Positions 2,600 through 17,924 of a DNA stretch of 21,917 bases are shown one piece after another. The position numbers and the translations under genes are program-made. Source of the stretch: a virus (lineage: Duplodnaviria; Heunggongvirae; Uroviricota; Caudoviricetes). A model generated the notes under the pieces. The model saw only the letters and a list, made by a program, of their open reading frames with translations. It was not told where the DNA came from and searched no databases. Where the stretch lies: the IMG/VR virus record IMGVR_UViG_2751185961_000012, positions 1-21,917 of that record. One strand, 5' to 3'. Position 1 is the first letter of the stretch. Each line of letters opens with the position of its first letter.

Positions 2600-3112
2600 T
2601 CAGAGGCTTAAGGTGAAGCCTTTTCGGGAATTTCGATCTGACAGTCTTGAAATATCCTGTAGCGTGCGGCGCATTTCTTCCGTCAGATGTTTGAAGGCGT
2701 TAAATTCAGCAACAGCGGCATCGACGTTATAGCCCTTGCTGTGTAGCTCGTTGAGGATGCGCATAGTTGGGCTTGGCATATCGAAGAGCACAGAAACGTC
2801 CAGGTTAAGAGTTTTTCGATCAACATAGCTCATCATGGAGTAGGGGTGATGTTCAGAAAACCACGAGAGAGGGTAGTTGATAGATAGTGTTGATTCTGGA
2901 AGCTGAAGTTGTTCTGGGATTTTTTGACTGAAATAGCAGTCTTCCAGTTTTTCGAACACATCCCACGCTAATTCAGATGTGCGTGTGCATACGACAATAA
3001 AAAACACGCTCGCGGCGTGTGTCTGTCGCGGTTGAATATCCGGGGTCTCAATCCCGACGCCAGATTTTGCTGGCGTGCGGAGAATATAATCCCGGATACG
3101 CGACGTTGTCAA
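2600..3112 (-). CDS. Paralog or remnant of the antirepressor C-terminal domain (C-terminal about 95 aa is near-identical to the C-terminus of the 12096..12734 protein)
   Basis: C-terminal region INYPLSWFSEHHPY...LFDMPSPTMRILNELHSKGYNVDAAVAEFNAFKHLTEEMRR matches 12096..12734; the annotated start is a non-ATG (TTG-type) codon, so this may be truncated or a pseudogene. Confidence 0.45.
   Translation of the reverse strand: MTTSRIRDYILRTPAKSGVGIETPDIQPRQTHAASVFFIVVCTRTSELAWDVFEKLEDCYFSQKIPEQLQLPESTLSINYPLSWFSEHHPYSMMSYVDRKTLNLDVSVLFDMPSPTMRILNELHSKGYNVDAAVAEFNAFKHLTEEMRRTLQDISRLSDRNSRKGFTLSL
2666..2882. repeat. Dispersed direct repeat copy A (about 220 bp, roughly 85-90 percent identical to 12162..12386)
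   Basis: Long runs of identical sequence read by eye, e.g. cggcgcatttcttccgtcagatg...ttgaaggcgttaaattc...ctgtgtagctcgttgaggatgcgcatagttgggcttggcatatcgaagagcac...ccacgagagagggtagttgat. Confidence 0.8.
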
Positions 3113-5739: not shown

Positions 5740-6021
5740 TTAGCCATCAATATTTACCTTTATCGCGTATACCTTTACCGGTTTATCACCGAAGTGCGGA
5801 TGTGTGATTGTCTTGATTTCATATCCGCCATACGGAATATCAATTCTGCGGCTGGAATCGTCGCGCTTCGGATATCCCTTTGTGATAATCAGGCGGTCAT
5901 ATTCCCGGAACATGATTCGCTTATTCCAGTAGTCATTACACAAGCGATACTCTTCCGTTTTCTCCCCGCGAATCATGGCATCGAAGTATTCACCTTTGAC
6001 GGCAAGTTGCAGGTTAGCCAC
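5740..6021 (-). CDS. ASCH/DUF3850-like small protein, 93 aa
   Basis: Pattern KGEYFDAMIRGEKTEEYR followed by a basic beta-rich region resembles DUF3850 (ASCH-like) proteins; assignment from memory. Confidence 0.5.
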   Translation of the reverse strand: MANLQLAVKGEYFDAMIRGEKTEEYRLCNDYWNKRIMFREYDRLIITKGYPKRDDSSRRIDIPYGGYEIKTITHPHFGDKPVKVYAIKVNIDG

Positions 6022-6975: not shown

Positions 6976-7018
6976 CTTTAAAAAGGGCGGACATCAGCAA
7001 TCGGCAACTGATGCCGCC
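6976..7018 (-). terminator. Putative intrinsic terminator (long GC-rich hairpin GGCGGCATCAG...CTGATGTCCGCC followed by TTTTT on minus strand)
   Basis: Imperfect 11-12 bp inverted repeat read directly; followed on the minus strand by CTTTTTAAAG; about 100 nt downstream of the 7116..7592 gene. Confidence 0.55.
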
Positions 7019-12095: not shown

Positions 12096-12734
12096 TTAAA
12101 GATTAACGTTGAAACCAAAGCGGGAAGACTTTTCCGATGTGCGGGAAATATCCAGCAATTTACGGCGCATTTCTTCCGTCAGATGCTTGAAGGCGTTAAA
12201 TTCGGCGACAGCGGCGTCAACGTTATAGCCTTTGCTGTGTAGCTCGTTGAGGATGCGCATAGTTGGGCTTGGCATATCGAAGAGCACGGAAGCATCAAGG
12301 CTGATAACCTTGCGATCAACATAGTTCATCGTGGCGTAGGGATGGTTATCTGAGAACCACGAGAGAGGGTAGTTGATGTTCATTGGTGCAGGTAAAAGGC
12401 TCTGGCGAAGTTTCTTTTCGCACTCGATGAAGTATCGGCGTATCTGGCGGCCTTTTTCGTTACGTTCAACCATCGCAAGCTCTTTGGCTGTATCGAGAGT
12501 GAGGTGGTAGTCCTTGCGGTTGTGACCGCCTCTACCTTTTCTTTGCTCCCCCGTTTTGGGGAGCAAAATAAAATCTTGGTTTTCTGTAAATTCATACTCG
12601 GAGATGCGGATTCGTATCCACGTGGAAAAGTCTTTTCCGACTTCGAGAAACGCGTGTAAATCACGGGCATTACAGAACAGGGTAGTTTCGTTGTCGATAG
12701 TGCCGTTGAATACGGGGATGAGTTGAGAGTTCAT
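12096..12734 (-). CDS. Phage antirepressor, AntA-type N-terminal domain plus shared C-terminal domain
   Basis: N-terminal block LIPVFNG...ARDLHAFLEVGKDFSTWIRIRISEYEFTENQDF...YHLTLDTAKELAMVERNEKGRQIRRYFIECEK matches the AntA antirepressor domain; C-terminal 95 aa duplicated at 2600..3112. Confidence 0.75.
   Translation of the reverse strand: MNSQLIPVFNGTIDNETTLFCNARDLHAFLEVGKDFSTWIRIRISEYEFTENQDFILLPKTGEQRKGRGGHNRKDYHLTLDTAKELAMVERNEKGRQIRRYFIECEKKLRQSLLPAPMNINYPLSWFSDNHPYATMNYVDRKVISLDASVLFDMPSPTMRILNELHSKGYNVDAAVAEFNAFKHLTEEMRRKLLDISRTSEKSSRFGFNVNL
12162..12386. repeat. Dispersed direct repeat copy B (partner of 2666..2882)
   Basis: See copy A; same orientation, about 9.5 kb apart. Confidence 0.8.
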
Positions 12735-13000: not shown

Positions 13001-13552
13001 TTACAGCTTTATTCCGCATGCAGTGATAAATTTATTAACAGCACCAGTGGAGCCTAATACATTAAAGCTGAAAGAATATGTCATGGCATCTTCTCGTGTG
13101 ATGTCTTGGCGTCGAATCCCGACCCTCACTCTATGTTTAGCATCTCTGAGTTGCCTGAGTATAATTTTAATTTTCTTCATTTCAGTATCAGTACGTTCAG
13201 TGATAGCTTGTGTTAGCATTGAGTTTCTTCTTGAAAGTGTTGCGTTGAGCCTTATTATACTATTTTTGTCAATTTTTATTGCCATATCTATTGGGAATGA
13301 ATAAATTGGGGCCGATGTTTCTTCTTCTATGTCCTTTTCGACTAATGAGAATGTTAGGGATCTTGGCGTACAATTAAGAGCAATCATGTTATTATCAATC
13401 TCTTCAGGATTTGATGTTTTTTTTCCTACCATCAGCGCCGTGTGACCATCAGAGAACAAATCGTCGTCTGTTACTGTATACCACTCCGCCTGTACTATTG
13501 GTGAAAACAAAATTGTAGCGATAAGAGTTGTCCTGAGTATTTTTCGCATCAT
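13001..13552 (-). CDS. Secreted or periplasmic hypothetical protein with N-terminal signal peptide, 183 aa
   Basis: Classical signal peptide (MMRKILRTTLIATILFSPIVQA then EW); AT-rich gene at the promoter-proximal end of the leftward operon. Confidence 0.6.
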   Translation of the reverse strand: MMRKILRTTLIATILFSPIVQAEWYTVTDDDLFSDGHTALMVGKKTSNPEEIDNNMIALNCTPRSLTFSLVEKDIEEETSAPIYSFPIDMAIKIDKNSIIRLNATLSRRNSMLTQAITERTDTEMKKIKIILRQLRDAKHRVRVGIRRQDITREDAMTYSFSFNVLGSTGAVNKFITACGIKL

Positions 13553-14306
13553 TAAGTTTCCCGTTCAGTTCGACCGACATCCTTCATGAAGTGCTTACAT
13601 AGTCTATTTGATAGCACTACCTACGCGGTAGTATAAAGAAGTCAGTTGAAAACTTGAACATTGTGTTGAAAAAATAACTTTGTGCGGCATAGGTAATCGT
13701 AGAATGATTGTGATTGGTCTTATGGTATCCAATCATTACTTTTGCTACAGGGTTGGGACGGCATCGCTATTTCACGCAACGCTTTGGTGGCACTCTCAGC
13801 ACCCCAAAACATTCCCTGTATTGGTCAGCGCCAACTTCCTGCCAGTGTTGCCCGTTCTCACGCCGTTCTCGCTCTCGCGCGGGGATACTCTCTCATCGAC
13901 CGGATCGCACCCGATGATACAGCACGTTTACGTGTAGGGGTCTAAACAGGTCATTGACGCTGTAAAGCTCCAGATTGTTAAAGAGCATTTTGCGGCGGGT
14001 TAAGTCGCGCCGTACGACTGATTTATGTAGCCCTGTGTAAGGGCGCGATGTTTCTGGCTTGAAATAAATATAACTTGCGGTGATTTTTGTGTAAATACCG
14101 TTGGTGGTTATTGGGGTCAAAAAAATATTACTTAACTGATTTTTAAAGTGATTTATTTTTCAAGGGGGCGGTTAGCGGAGTGCGGTCAAAGAAAAGCCGG
14201 CGCGGGCCGGTTACTCTGTGTGAGATTTGGCGTGAGGGAAAAGCCCCCGGATAACACCAGGAAAAGCAGCGAACAGTCAAAGAGAACCCAGCGGGCTTGG
14301 TGGCTT

Positions 14307-14335
14307 TTGACAAAAACACTGCCTGTAACTATAAT
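14307..14335 (+). promoter_or_regulatory. Consensus sigma70 promoter (TTGACA - 17 nt - TATAAT) upstream of hicA
   Basis: Exact -35 and -10 hexamers with a 17-nt spacer read directly; about 30 nt upstream of the hicA start. Confidence 0.65.
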
Positions 14336-14364
14336 TAGTTGCAATGTAGCGAAGATGAGATTAT

Positions 14365-14619
14365 GTGGGTATGGGGAAAGCAGATAAGCTACTGGAAAAG
14401 TTTTTAAACAGTAAAAAAACGTTTGAATGGGATGAGCTGGTCGTTTTGTTTTCCTCTCTGGGAGATGTCAAAAAGGAAATGCAGGGCTCAAGAGTGCGGT
14501 TTTTCAATGCTGAAATCAACCACACCATATTAATGCATCGCCCACATCCAGAAAGTTATATTAAAGGTGGAACGCTGAAAGCGATTAAACAGAATCTGAA
14601 AGAGGCTGGGGTATTATGA
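14365..14619 (+). CDS. hicA: HicA-family toxin (mRNA interferase-like)
   Basis: HicA-like C-terminal signature (GSRVRF ... HRPHPESYIKGGTLKAIKQNLKEAGVL); ATGA-type overlap with the downstream hicB; start uncertain (GTG at 14365 or ATG at 14371). Confidence 0.7.
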   Translation: MGMGKADKLLEKFLNSKKTFEWDELVVLFSSLGDVKKEMQGSRVRFFNAEINHTILMHRPHPESYIKGGTLKAIKQNLKEAGVL

Positions 14620-16159: not shown

Positions 16160-16224
16160 TACCTTGTTATATTAACAATTTACTATAAGATGTTGCACCA
16201 TAGTTTTCGTTAATCACAACTAAA

Positions 16225-16246
16225 ATCACCCAAACATCACCCAAAC
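16225..16246. repeat. Tandem direct repeat, 2 x 11 bp (ATCACCCAAAC), with a third ATCAC about 13 bp upstream
   Basis: Read directly; lies 65-90 bp upstream of the peptidase start codon (minus strand), a plausible regulator-binding or promoter element. Confidence 0.6.
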
Positions 16247-16298
16247 GTCTCTTCAGGTTACTAGTTAACAACAGGCCAAAAATTCTGTCTGAACGTAT

Positions 16299-16324
16299 TG
16301 AAATAAAGGCCGGGAAAGCGGCCT
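16299..16324 (-). terminator. Hairpin terminator (AGGCCG-GGAAAG-CGGCCT) flanked by T/A runs, possibly bidirectional
   Basis: 6-bp GC stem read directly; immediately downstream of the stop of the small signal-peptide ORF; T-run on the plus side (TGTTTTT) and TTTATTTC on the minus side. Confidence 0.45.
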
Positions 16325-16329
16325 TGTTT

Positions 16330-16491
16330 TTAGCGAATACCACCACCGCCAGGACGAGAATCAGCAGAACGACCACCACAACGAGAGCCGTCAGCAGCGG
16401 TATCATTGTCGTGTTGGCAACGACCAGCGAATGATTGAGTCGAAGCTACCAGTGACAACAAAACGAACAATACAGCAAATGATTTTTTCAT
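16330..16491 (-). CDS. Small predicted secreted peptide, about 53 aa (signal peptide plus Gly/Cys-containing 30-aa mature part)
   Basis: Internal ATG of ORF 16330..16563 gives MKKSFAVLFVLLSLVASTQSFA then GRCQHD..., a canonical signal peptide; weak Shine-Dalgarno; same strand as cI and directly downstream of it. Confidence 0.4.
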   Translation of the reverse strand: MKKSFAVLFVLLSLVASTQSFAGRCQHDNDTAADGSRCGGRSADSRPGGGGIR

Positions 16492-16587: not shown

Positions 16588-17301
16588 TCAATCAAAAGTA
16601 TCATCATTCCACTGCGATTTGATGACCTTTCCGACAAACTGGCAGTTTTCGTTACACTCAATCATGTCGAATCGTGGGTTGAGCGGCTCCAGGTACGCTT
16701 TACCGCTCTCACGAATGAATCGTTTGAAGGTGAATTCATCGCCGTTCATTCGGGCCACGCAAAAATCGCCATCCTCGATTTCCCGTTCAGGGTCAACGAG
16801 TATCAGCATACCTTCAGGGAAGCTGGGTTTACCTCCCTGTGGCGCGGTCATTGAATGCCCCTTAACTTCCAGCCAGAACGACCTGTTACTGGCTTTTGTG
16901 GTGGTGGAGATCCACTTAATCGCATCCTTTGCGGTGTACGAAATATCATCCATTGTGAATGCGCCAGCCTGTACGCAGGAGAGTAACGGATATTCGTAAG
17001 CAGGGACACGAGTTAATGGCTCTTCAATCGCGAGCGCCATTTCTGCAATAGATTTTGCCAAGCTGGGGCTGAAATCTCCGACCTTTACATTCAGTAACTT
17101 AGCAAGCTGCGCTGCGTGACTGGCATTTATGGCGTTGATGCCAGCCATTAGCTGATTAACGGCACTTTGGGTAACACCTAGTTCATAGGCTAATGACTCC
17201 TGTGACAAGCCTAACTCTTTCTTTTTAGCGATGAAAATGCTTTTAAGACGCTTGGCGTCTTCCAGTTGCTCAGGGGTTAACGGTTTCTTTTTCATGTTCA
17301 T
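16588..17301 (-). CDS. cI: Lambda-type CI repressor (N-terminal HTH, C-terminal S24/LexA-like autocleavage domain)
   Basis: 237 aa, collinear with lambda CI as recalled ([17 protein letters not shown] ... LGLSQESLA ... [31 protein letters not shown] ... [19 protein letters not shown] ... LEPLNP); divergent from cro. Confidence 0.9.
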
Positions 17302-17630: not shown

Positions 17631-17924
17631 GTGAACAGGCAAATCAAAACGGTTATGCCCGATCAGTACAGCGATGCTGATCGGGACTGGATACAGGAGC
17701 AATTGTTACAGCTAGACCCGACCACCAGGGTAAAAATTGCAGCAGAGTACGCGAGAGTGTACCAGGAAGAGTGGGACAAGGAGCCTGTATCGTTCAGGAA
17801 GGGCAACAGGGCAAGACGGAGCGCCAACACCCGGTTACGGGTGTATGTCCAGAAGTACGCGAGAGCCAGCCGTGGCTGGATGCTTTCGCCAGTAGCGGTA
17901 CGGAAGTTTCCCCCGACACCATGA
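17631..17924 (+). CDS. Hypothetical basic protein in the cII-equivalent position, 97 aa
   Basis: GTG start with GGAGG Shine-Dalgarno 5 nt upstream; Arg-rich C-terminus; no similarity to lambda CII recognised. Confidence 0.5.
   Translation: MNRQIKTVMPDQYSDADRDWIQEQLLQLDPTTRVKIAAEYARVYQEEWDKEPVSFRKGNRARRSANTRLRVYVQKYARASRGWMLSPVAVRKFPPTP

Follow-up and report, generated by a model that had tools for sequence, protein, structure and literature searches.

A putative phi80-type nutL RNA with a covariation-supported fold in the early region of a lambdoid prophage lacking a phi80 N homolog

Introduction

What does a lambdoid prophage keep in a long interval beside its leftward early operon in which no convincing gene can be found? 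The question is raised by positions 13553-14364 of the window analyzed here, a stretch of 21,917 nt (IMG/VR record IMGVR_UViG_2751185961_000012; coordinates are those of the window unless stated otherwise) that represents part of a lambdoid prophage. The interval is bounded by a 183-aa open reading frame (ORF; 13001-13552, minus strand) and by hicA (from 14365, plus strand). The initial annotation described it as non-coding DNA with the character of a gene remnant, which might hold the leftward early promoter (pL) with its operators (OL), a small RNA (sRNA) or what is left of a displaced gene. We found that the interval resolves into ordinary elements, namely a promoter, operators, terminators and a nut-type leader. 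Judged by sequence comparison, it is probably where a phi80-like/Eru1-type lambdoid prophage controls its leftward early genes, equipped with a proposed antitermination leader and lying beside the promoter of an inserted hicAB cassette. What is unusual is the nutL homolog itself, which is far more elaborate than annotated, absent from Rfam and unchanged in medically important phages without N.

The outbreak strains O104:H4 (2011) and O103:H25 (2006) harbored Eru1-type Shiga toxin (Stx) 2a phages, which reportedly form unusually unstable lysogens (PMC8044961). According to Llarena et al., Eru1 phages have no homologs of N, CII and CIII, and what drives their early transcription is not explained in that study (PMC8044961). 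A full-text literature search found no paper discussing nutL in phi80 or Eru1 phages, and the corresponding gap is left blank in the seven annotated phage records that we inspected, phi80 excepted.

Results

A putative nutL homolog on the minus strand

The finding centers on a 171-nt element of the minus strand (13987->13817) that is 94.7% identical to phi80 (JX871397, M11919). Because the phi80 records carry nutL features under the match, its assignment to the phi80-type nutL is the core of our result; at the level of sequence, the element is a homolog of that site. In M11919, a 278-nt 'nutL regulatory signal' encloses the match and is followed by the N gene and t-L1. In JX871397, the first nine bases of the element are annotated as 'nutL boxA' and a hairpin within it (H1 below) as 'nutL core', both putative, with N ('similar to lambda N') and the terminators tL1A and tL1B downstream; no nutR is annotated in phi80. 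Conservation with phi80 starts exactly at boxA and runs for ~190 nt.

The element is present in 108 enterobacterial phage records, and in about 100 records of Stx phages, including the O104:H4 outbreak phage P13374, it is 99.4-100% identical. By exact-pattern scans it was detected in over 100 viral contigs of IMG/VR, and Enterobacter, Kluyvera, Huaxiibacter and Escherichia prophages carry it as well. In six of the seven annotated phage records (P13374, PA2, Lyz12581Vzw, phi80, HK225 and KO-TP1), it occupies the gap upstream of the leftward early genes, and in phi80 and HK225 an annotated promoter lies directly upstream of it; in the seventh, Edno5, cI and the match are separated by an annotated ORF. 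None of the seven has a gene annotated over the element itself, and hypothetical proteins are listed under the match only in vB_EcoP_phi346 and Klebsiella phage ST13-OXA48phi12.2.

The element opens with a boxA:

13987->13975, minus strand: boxA, TGCTCTTTAACAA, a perfect match to GYTCTTTAANA

GYTCTTTAANA is the boxA consensus derived for gamma-proteobacteria (PMC5725501), and NusB:NusE has a much higher affinity for boxA of the rrn type than for that of lambda nut (PMC2800207). TGCTCTTTAACAA is the only match without mismatches in the window, where no second boxA was found within one mismatch. Among the 85 distinct family members described below, 13 match the consensus perfectly, as does the window (GCTCTTTAACA), while most carry GCTTTTTAACA.

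Covariation supports a four-way junction

Downstream of boxA, the comparison of relatives defines a structured RNA with the following parts, all on the minus strand:

13962->13826: structured RNA domain of ~137 nt, a four-way junction closed by P1, P2 and P3
13962-13953 with 13835-13826: stem P1
13950-13945 with 13843-13838: stem P2
13939-13937 with 13853-13851: stem P3
13934->13923: hairpin H1, the 'nutL core' of phi80, CACGTAAACGTG
13917->13893: hairpin H2, with the conserved loop GCGAUCC
13885->13858: hairpin H3, with the GNRA loop GAGA

The RNA structure is supported by covariation. We aligned 21 representatives sharing less than 96% identity with MAFFT, without fitting the alignment to any structure, and the RNAalifold consensus shows P2 and P3 nested and enclosing H1, H2 and H3. 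In this alignment 97.5% of the cells are standard pairs and 15 of the 31 pairs show compensatory (both-side) changes, values that none of 500 shuffles reached. When the partners were slid by 1-3 columns as a control, pairing was 31-44%, with 2-5 compensatory pairs. A covariance model built from the same alignment hits the window at 13987->13817 with 187.8 bits (phi80 itself scores 192 bits). It aligned 101 matches, 85 of them distinct; the latter are 98.2% paired, with compensatory changes in 20 of 31 pairs, in an alignment that leans towards the model by construction. With filters off, the same model found no second copy of the element in the window, the next best score being 7.5 bits.

In each of the six helices counted, compensatory changes keep the pairing between lineages that are otherwise divergent at many positions. 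Different lineages build stem P1 from different sequences, such as CAGCGUCAAU/AGUUGGCGCUG here, GCACAU/AUGUGC or CACAAUCC/GGGUUGUG elsewhere, and further variants pit GCAC/GUGC against GUAC/GUAC; in a duplex test, cognate P1 strands averaged -12.3 kcal/mol versus -7.4 for shuffled partners. H1, one arm of the junction, consists of a 4-bp stem and an A-rich loop of 4-5 nt, its total length being 12 or 13 nt among relatives owing to 1-nt differences in the loop. The GNRA loop of H3 (GAGA or GAAA) is kept in most lineages, whereas the H3 stem co-varies. The conserved single-stranded segments of the domain are UUUAGACCCC, GCGAUCC and GAACGGGCAACACUGG. Several conserved pairs are G-U and can form on the minus-strand transcript only; because such pairs are many, we assign the RNA to the minus strand. 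Covariation, the re-forming of P1, the change in H1 length and the G-U pairs together rule out that the element is a coding region, a plus-strand RNA or a DNA cruciform.

One viral contig (L143) contains two copies of the RNA family, at 2961-3092 (minus) and 5782-5949 (plus) in its own coordinates, one on either side of a cI/cro-like pair. Besides the full copy, there is a reduced one scoring 37.5 bits, in which a perfect boxA, P2 and an H2-like hairpin with its GCGAUCC loop are left. It is encoded on the other strand than the full copy and is flanked by cro-like and cII-like ORFs, which is the nutR position in lambda. A hicAB-like pair adjoins the full copy in the same contig.

The initial annotation had pointed to a covariance-model scan as a way of recognizing a structured RNA, and this brought up no known family: Rfam 15, with the whole window scanned, gave no match at the locus at gathering score, and none within 13553-14364 even at E<=10. 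A tRNA/tmRNA scan prompted by the cloverleaf-like junction likewise found none. Directly behind the domain lies a further conserved stretch:

13825->13800, minus strand: 3' flank, ACCAAUACAGGGAAUGUUUUGGGGUG, common to phi80 and many relatives

A small ORF starting at a conserved AUG in this flank (13812) was considered and rejected, as the peptides diverge after 3-4 residues. Other relatives (L017, L044, L078, L129, L132 and more) have a different 3' flank, in which a strong Shine-Dalgarno sequence comes right after P1 and leads into a mini-ORF of 2-3 codons, GAGGAGTGATTCCA ATG AAG CAC TAA (variants MKQ, MKR, MEH, MQQ and MK), followed by the hairpin GCGGACAGACCGC.

Promoter and operators of the leader

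Upstream of the element, the following parts are predicted, all on the minus strand:

~14160->14061: pL/OL region, a sigma-70 promoter with operator-like repeats
14095->14067: pL promoter TTTACA-17-TATATT (-35 TTTACA, 14095->14090; -10 TATATT, 14072->14067)
14060->13817: 244-nt leader of the pL transcript
14060->13988: 5' leader with two small hairpins, GCCCU..AGGGC and CGGCG..CGCCG (single-sequence fold)

In a multiple alignment, this promoter, the annotated pL of phi80 and the promoter-like hexamers of Stx phages occupy identical columns, although the surrounding sequence differs between the aligned phages. JX871397 annotates these columns as the -35 and -10 of pL overlapped by three CI operators, and the older phi80 record labels the same stretch 'O-L region'. 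Here, an operator-like site, ATCACCGCAAGTTATA (14084->14069), overlaps the -10 hexamer of pL, and its near-palindromic relative TATCACCTTTGGTTATA is located between cI and cro. The GATTT direct repeats noted in the initial annotation (TGATTTATGT, TGATTTTTGT and TGATTTATTT at 14019, 14081 and 14149) are the complement of AAATCAC-type repeats, which are further operator candidates and resemble the AAATC(A/C)AC repeated in the phi80 operators.

The boundary of sequence identity is sharp. Within the pL/OL stretch, identity to three lineages of Stx phages (P13374, PA2 and Lyz12581Vzw) is 62-90%, whereas from 14060 leftwards it amounts to 244 of 244 positions, including all 73 positions of 13988-14060 in these 'Oslovirus' phages. 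We place the start of the transcript near 14060 on account of both the promoter position and this boundary. Overall, pL/OL and the start site are inferred with good indirect support, in line with the pL equivalent and operators that the initial annotation had suggested for this interval.

Search for a partner protein

The phi80 N homolog is absent from the window: tblastn with phi80 N gave no match there, and neither did tblastn with HK225 gp40, Edno5 gp49/gp50 or KO-TP1 gp28. Nor was any N-type Pfam or PHROG family found among the 15 window ORFs scanned, 12 of them leftward, the window being part of the prophage. These results bear out the statement of the initial annotation that no N-like antiterminator gene is recognizable. 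As general partners of the RNA, HK225 gp40, Edno5 gp49/gp50, KO-TP1 gp28 and phi80 N were all rejected, since each occurs in a minority of loci. A universal neighbor within +/-4 kb was also sought and rejected; the most frequent proteins (Kil, GamL-like) reach at most 24 of 38 loci.

Homologs of phi80 N accompany the element in 8 of 130 loci with downstream sequence and an HK225-gp40-like protein in 11 of 130; the remaining loci have other first genes, and the first downstream ORFs fall into many unrelated clusters. In the phage collection, phi80 N matches 22 records, none of them a Stx phage, and among the 108 RNA-bearing phage records it is found in those of phi80 only. Conversely, four phages with phi80-N homologs have no such RNA within 2 kb (Erwinia 59, Salmonella STGO-35-1, Escherichia phage 26, which is a Kagunavirus, and Hafnia yong1), and we therefore doubt that this family is a dedicated antiterminator. 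Homologs of phi80 'N' (phrog_25091, function unknown; loci L178-L181) often lie in runs of small genes far from cI and pL.

Arginine-rich motifs (ARMs) are found in HK225 gp40 (KKRQKPRKQAIK) and Edno5 gp49 (RQRRAMRYRA), both encoded downstream of the element. In the window, an Arg-rich stretch, RKGNRARRSANTRLRVYVQKYARASR, occurs in a 97-aa ORF occupying the cII slot (17631-17924, plus strand; phrog_852, no Pfam match).

Remainder of the interval and neighboring modules

On comparative grounds, the interval is a mosaic of at least five adjacent features with separate evolutionary histories. Segment 13799-14500 recurs beside hicA in other E. coli genomes. Segment 13778-14210 recurs at ~93% identity in more than 100 Stx2a-converting 'Oslovirus' phages (P13374, TL-2011c, PA2 and others), and in all three annotated Oslovirus records inspected its counterpart lies in an unannotated gap. 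Counterparts of segment 13800-13987 exist in phi80, HK225 and Klebsiella phage KO-TP1, with a partial one in Edwardsiella phage Edno5. Comparison with related prophages, as proposed in the initial annotation, thus retrieved pieces of the junction from Stx phages, phi80, HK225 and KO-TP1. A wider query (13400-14500) matched 224 of 5,426 complete E. coli genomes, while 13553-13777 has matches in only three of them, each time together with the 183-aa ORF; for 13540-13800, no homology outside its cassette was found in these genomes or in the phage collection.

The remaining features of the interval are as follows:

14307-14335, plus strand: hicAB promoter TTGACA-17-TATAAT, 12/12 matches, ~30 nt 5' of hicA (promoter scan)
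14263->14244, minus strand, upstream of pL: terminator-like hairpin followed by CTTTTCCCTC (terminator scan)
14210->14197, minus strand: terminator-like hairpin CCGGCCCGCGCCGG followed by CTTTTCTTTG (terminator scan)
13553-13799, minus strand: AT-rich spacer of the 183-aa-ORF cassette, carrying both inverted repeats

The hairpin at 14263->14244 belongs to a block on the hicAB side that is common to other E. coli genomes, and the one at 14210->14197 would stop leftward transcription from the immunity/moron region before pL. Both inverted repeats of the initial annotation are present, AATGATTG/CAATCATT at 13703-13710/13730-13737 and ACTACC-TACGC-GGTAGT at 13617-13633, a few positions from where the latter had been placed (13612-13630). 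An intrinsic terminator within 13553-13800 was rejected, as neither repeat is followed by a U-run; the scans found no terminator-like or good promoter-like site in 13553-13799, and no function for this spacer was found. Between the leader and the 183-aa ORF, the cassette-specific sequence amounts to about 265 bp.

The interval holds only short and unconserved ORFs, just as the initial annotation had it in calling this gap between the leftward operon and hicAB non-coding. At a near-identical locus of E. coli FHI_NMBU_10 (L002), hicA and hicB are annotated and the gap is without an annotated gene. The stretch said to be open in all three plus-strand frames (about 13740-13940) extends over 13712-13917 (204 nt) and is the longest such run in the window; since 3% of the local-composition shuffles reach this length (mean longest 149, sd 23), it is mildly unusual.

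The surroundings are those of a lambdoid prophage:

16588-17301, minus strand: cI, facing cro (plus strand)

To the right of cro lie a helicase and a DUF7146-domain gene, in the slot of the Eru1 replication genes in TL-2011c. Ant, Kil, GamL, RecT and Exo are encoded to the left, all on the minus strand, and the first leftward gene, the 183-aa ORF, has a signal-peptide-like N-terminus. The moron slot between the immunity region and pL is variable. Here it is occupied by hicAB, encoded on the opposite strand from the leftward early genes; P13374 and PA2 have a BsuBI/PstI-like restriction-modification pair in its place, and Lyz12581Vzw has SocA/Panacea together with restriction-modification. The matched block of P13374 starts 22 nt past the end of the restriction-endonuclease gene annotated there. 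Between cI and hicAB, we also observed a 303-aa ClpP-like SDH-type serine proteinase (PF01972; 15248-16159, minus) and, upstream of its gene, a 79-aa ORF (16167-16406), where ATCAC(C) repeats at 16212-16250 resemble operator half-sites.

Two matches to Rfam sRNA families lie elsewhere in the window, both on the minus strand. The sRNA-Xcc1 match (12863->12775, 65.9 bits) falls within the 270 nt that separate the 183-aa ORF from the AntA/B gene. Ahead of it are a promoter (TTGACA-18-TATATT, 12978->12949) and a hairpin with six U (12908->12885), which together would give a short (~55-nt) terminated transcript. The isrK match (3076->2999, 73.6 bits) has its promoter at 3112->3083 (TTGACA-18-TATATT) and its own terminator at 3020->3004. 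Beside isrK, 2606-2926 encodes a second copy of the Ant-like C-terminal half, 72% identical to the product of 12096-12734. The window thus contains two 'sRNA promoter + ant-like' modules, reminiscent of the isrK-anrP arrangement of Gifsy-1.

Discussion

Proposed function of the leader

By analogy with known systems, the RNA would most likely be a cis-acting antitermination leader, serving the leftward early operon through host Nus factors, alone or together with a partner not yet recognizable. In a lysogen, CI bound to OL would keep pL silent. Upon induction, with CI inactivated, RNA polymerase would start near 14060 and make the 244-nt leader first. BoxA would serve as the loading site for NusB/NusE, with the other contacts coming from the folded domain, the four-way junction with its conserved single-stranded segments possibly acting as a platform for NusA, polymerase or another factor. 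The nascent RNA would stay attached to the elongating polymerase, as in N-nut, rrn and put complexes, so that the ~14-kb leftward operon (183-aa ORF, Ant, Kil, Gam, RecT, Exo and beyond) would resist terminators. A candidate target is the hairpin with a six-U run at 12908->12885, just past the first leftward gene, and the scan shows further candidate terminators at 7015, 5716, 3020 and 2588.

Because no phi80 N homolog and no recognizable N-type protein were found, the RNA most likely acts either with host factors alone, in a put-like or rrn-like manner, or with a partner that is not yet recognizable. We put forward tentatively, as a possibility that may well fail, the idea that boxA and the four-way junction form a self-sufficient processive antiterminator operating through host Nus factors or direct polymerase binding. 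Were this true, it would add a further class of protein-independent RNA to the short list of RNA-only antiterminators, beside the put RNAs of HK022 and HK639, and would link that list to the Nus/boxA machinery. It would also explain how the leftward early operon is expressed in N-less Eru1 Stx phages, including the O104:H4 and O103:H25 outbreak phages, and would mean that phi80 'N' is not an obligatory partner of the RNA.

Several observations weigh against antitermination by a leader of this kind. The nutL features of phi80 carry the label 'putative' in JX871397. Recent spread of the module, and not selection, could account for the 100% identity seen among Stx phages. In the left operon, terminator-like sites are not more numerous than in shuffles (17 found, 15.4 expected). 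The single-sequence fold is weakly better than shuffles (z = -1.5 to -2.0), for which reason it was not used as evidence, and the minimum-free-energy fold differs in detail from the covariation-supported one. The relatives were retrieved by exact conserved patterns of 16-17 nt, so that their diversity is limited and the invariance of the motif columns is partly a matter of construction. As to independence from a phage protein, small N proteins are short, divergent and notoriously undetectable by homology. A cognate protein could therefore be present in the window, for example the Arg-rich 97-aa ORF at 17631-17924; HK225 and Edno5, where ARM-like proteins are encoded downstream of the element, could provide further examples of such partners.

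Alternative explanations

The most serious alternative follows from the last point: the element could be a classical protein-dependent nut site served by a phage N analog without detectable similarity to the N of lambda or phi80, which would bind the RNA while Nus factors gather on boxA, as in lambda. The phi80 element is, after all, annotated as nutL with an N gene just downstream; arginine-rich motifs are encoded downstream of the element by HK225 gp40 and Edno5 gp49, and an Arg-rich stretch by the 97-aa ORF of the window; and H1 is a short A-rich hairpin reminiscent of boxB. Yet H1, CACGUAAACGUG, is identical in phi80, which has N, and in the window and the Stx phages, which do not. In addition, even the commonest protein family within +/-4 kb reaches only 24 of 38 loci, the first downstream genes form many unrelated clusters, the phi80-N family occurs in phages without the RNA, a Kagunavirus included, and the published comparison reports no N in Eru1 phages (PMC8044961). 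On balance, we regard this explanation as rather unlikely.

We consider it improbable that the RNA is a leader or sRNA with some other role, be it control of translation or stability of the first gene, Rho-directed attenuation via boxA, or a processed RNA acting in trans. There is a precedent in that boxA upstream of suhB represses rather than antiterminates (PMC5725501). In size the domain far exceeds the known nut and put sites, such prophages encode several sRNAs (with isrK and sRNA-Xcc1 matches in this window), and some relatives have a mini-ORF of 2-3 codons directly after the RNA. Gene-specific control is unlikely, however, because the downstream gene varies among relatives, and the domain is not followed by a terminator-like site that would delimit a discrete sRNA. 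The phi80 nutL annotation, the L143 copy at the nutR position and the putL of HK639 in the same slot all point to antitermination instead. Of the sRNA proposed in the initial annotation, the structured RNA is strongly supported, but what is seen is an operon leader homologous to phi80 nutL and not an obvious free-standing sRNA gene.

An orphaned relic is very improbable. Here nutL would have arrived with a phi80-like pL module, N would have been replaced later and the functionless RNA would seem conserved through recent spread. The 100% identity across Stx lineages with sharp mosaic boundaries, the absence of N and the recombinant 3' half of the HK225 element, which weakens P1, would all fit such a history. 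Nevertheless, compensatory changes maintain pairing across divergent lineages, P1 included. A dead site is also hard to reconcile with an element so widespread (108 phage records, 224 of 5,426 E. coli genomes with the wider query) and followed by so many unrelated first ORFs.

Finally, a decayed protein-coding gene, to which the three open plus-strand frames of 13712-13917 might point, can practically be dismissed, given the 1-nt differences in hairpin-loop length (H1 of 12 or 13 nt), substitutions that compensate for pairing rather than follow codons, unconserved putative peptides and the absence of any gene annotation over the element in the seven annotated records inspected. The gene-remnant character that the initial annotation had perceived is that of a GC-rich stop-free core, 13817-13987, which is the structured RNA of the minus strand; a displaced-gene remnant has no support in 13778-14210, and none was found in 13553-13777, a segment matched in 3 of 5,426 genomes, by the 183-aa ORF.

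What the locus offers irrespective of the choice between these explanations is an RNA with a covariation-supported fold of ~137 nt, without a constant protein neighbor and absent from Rfam. In all the N-less Eru1 Stx phages, the predicted pL is directly followed by an invariant RNA of the phi80 nutL type whose boxA fits the consensus, and the 171-nt element is a concrete, mutable target for studying early-gene control in them. Antitermination that is independent of N, or dependent on a novel partner, becomes a testable hypothesis. Even a conventional nut site would leave a useful annotation of pL, OL, nutL and the hicAB promoter.

Comparison with known antitermination systems

The closest counterpart is phi80 nutL, with which the element shares homologous sequence, the leftward strand, an identical core hairpin and the order of CI operators, pL, leader and boxA; in both phages it is present in a single copy. 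The two differ in that the phi80 N gene is missing downstream, its place being taken by the 183-aa ORF, in boxA, which is the perfect consensus GCTCTTTAACA here and GCTTTTTAACA in phi80, and in the 5' leader (13988-14060) and operators, which are not alike. Moreover, the phi80 annotation comprises a 9-nt boxA and a 12-nt core only, whereas covariation extends the structure to a four-way junction of ~137 nt.

With lambda-type nut sites, the element has in common that it is a promoter-proximal RNA signal of an early operon in which boxA precedes a structured element, and the proposed logic, a nascent RNA tethered to polymerase, is the same. The boxB of lambda is one 15-nt hairpin, with a GNRA-like pentaloop, placed within a few nucleotides of boxA, the sites come as a nutL/nutR pair, and the cognate N contains an ARM. 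Here, by contrast, the first hairpin lies 40 nt after boxA within a multi-helix domain, the element is present in one copy and no N was found in the window.

The rrn leader (boxB-boxA-boxC; NusA/B/E/G, SuhB and S4) shares the consensus rrn-type boxA and needs no phage protein. Beyond boxA there is no similarity, and we know of no counterpart of the 137-nt domain in rrn leaders.

The put RNAs consist of two stem-loops without boxA (PMC9378689), whereas the RNA described here has both boxA and a four-way junction. The put RNAs (putL/putR in HK022) act without phage or Nus proteins and are blocked by mutations in the zinc domain of rpoC. The family model found nothing in HK639 (whole genome) or in the early region of HK022 at E<=1 with filters off. 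Read directly, the putL sequence of HK639 also differs from this RNA. What unites them is the apparent lack of a dedicated phage protein and, in HK639, the occurrence of the left copy only, as in this phage and phi80. They also share a location: the first ~45 nt of the HK639 leader are those of phi80, after which a putL-like antiterminator RNA follows in the same slot. Since a put RNA there replaces boxA and the domain, this slot appears to serve antitermination signals of unrelated sequence.

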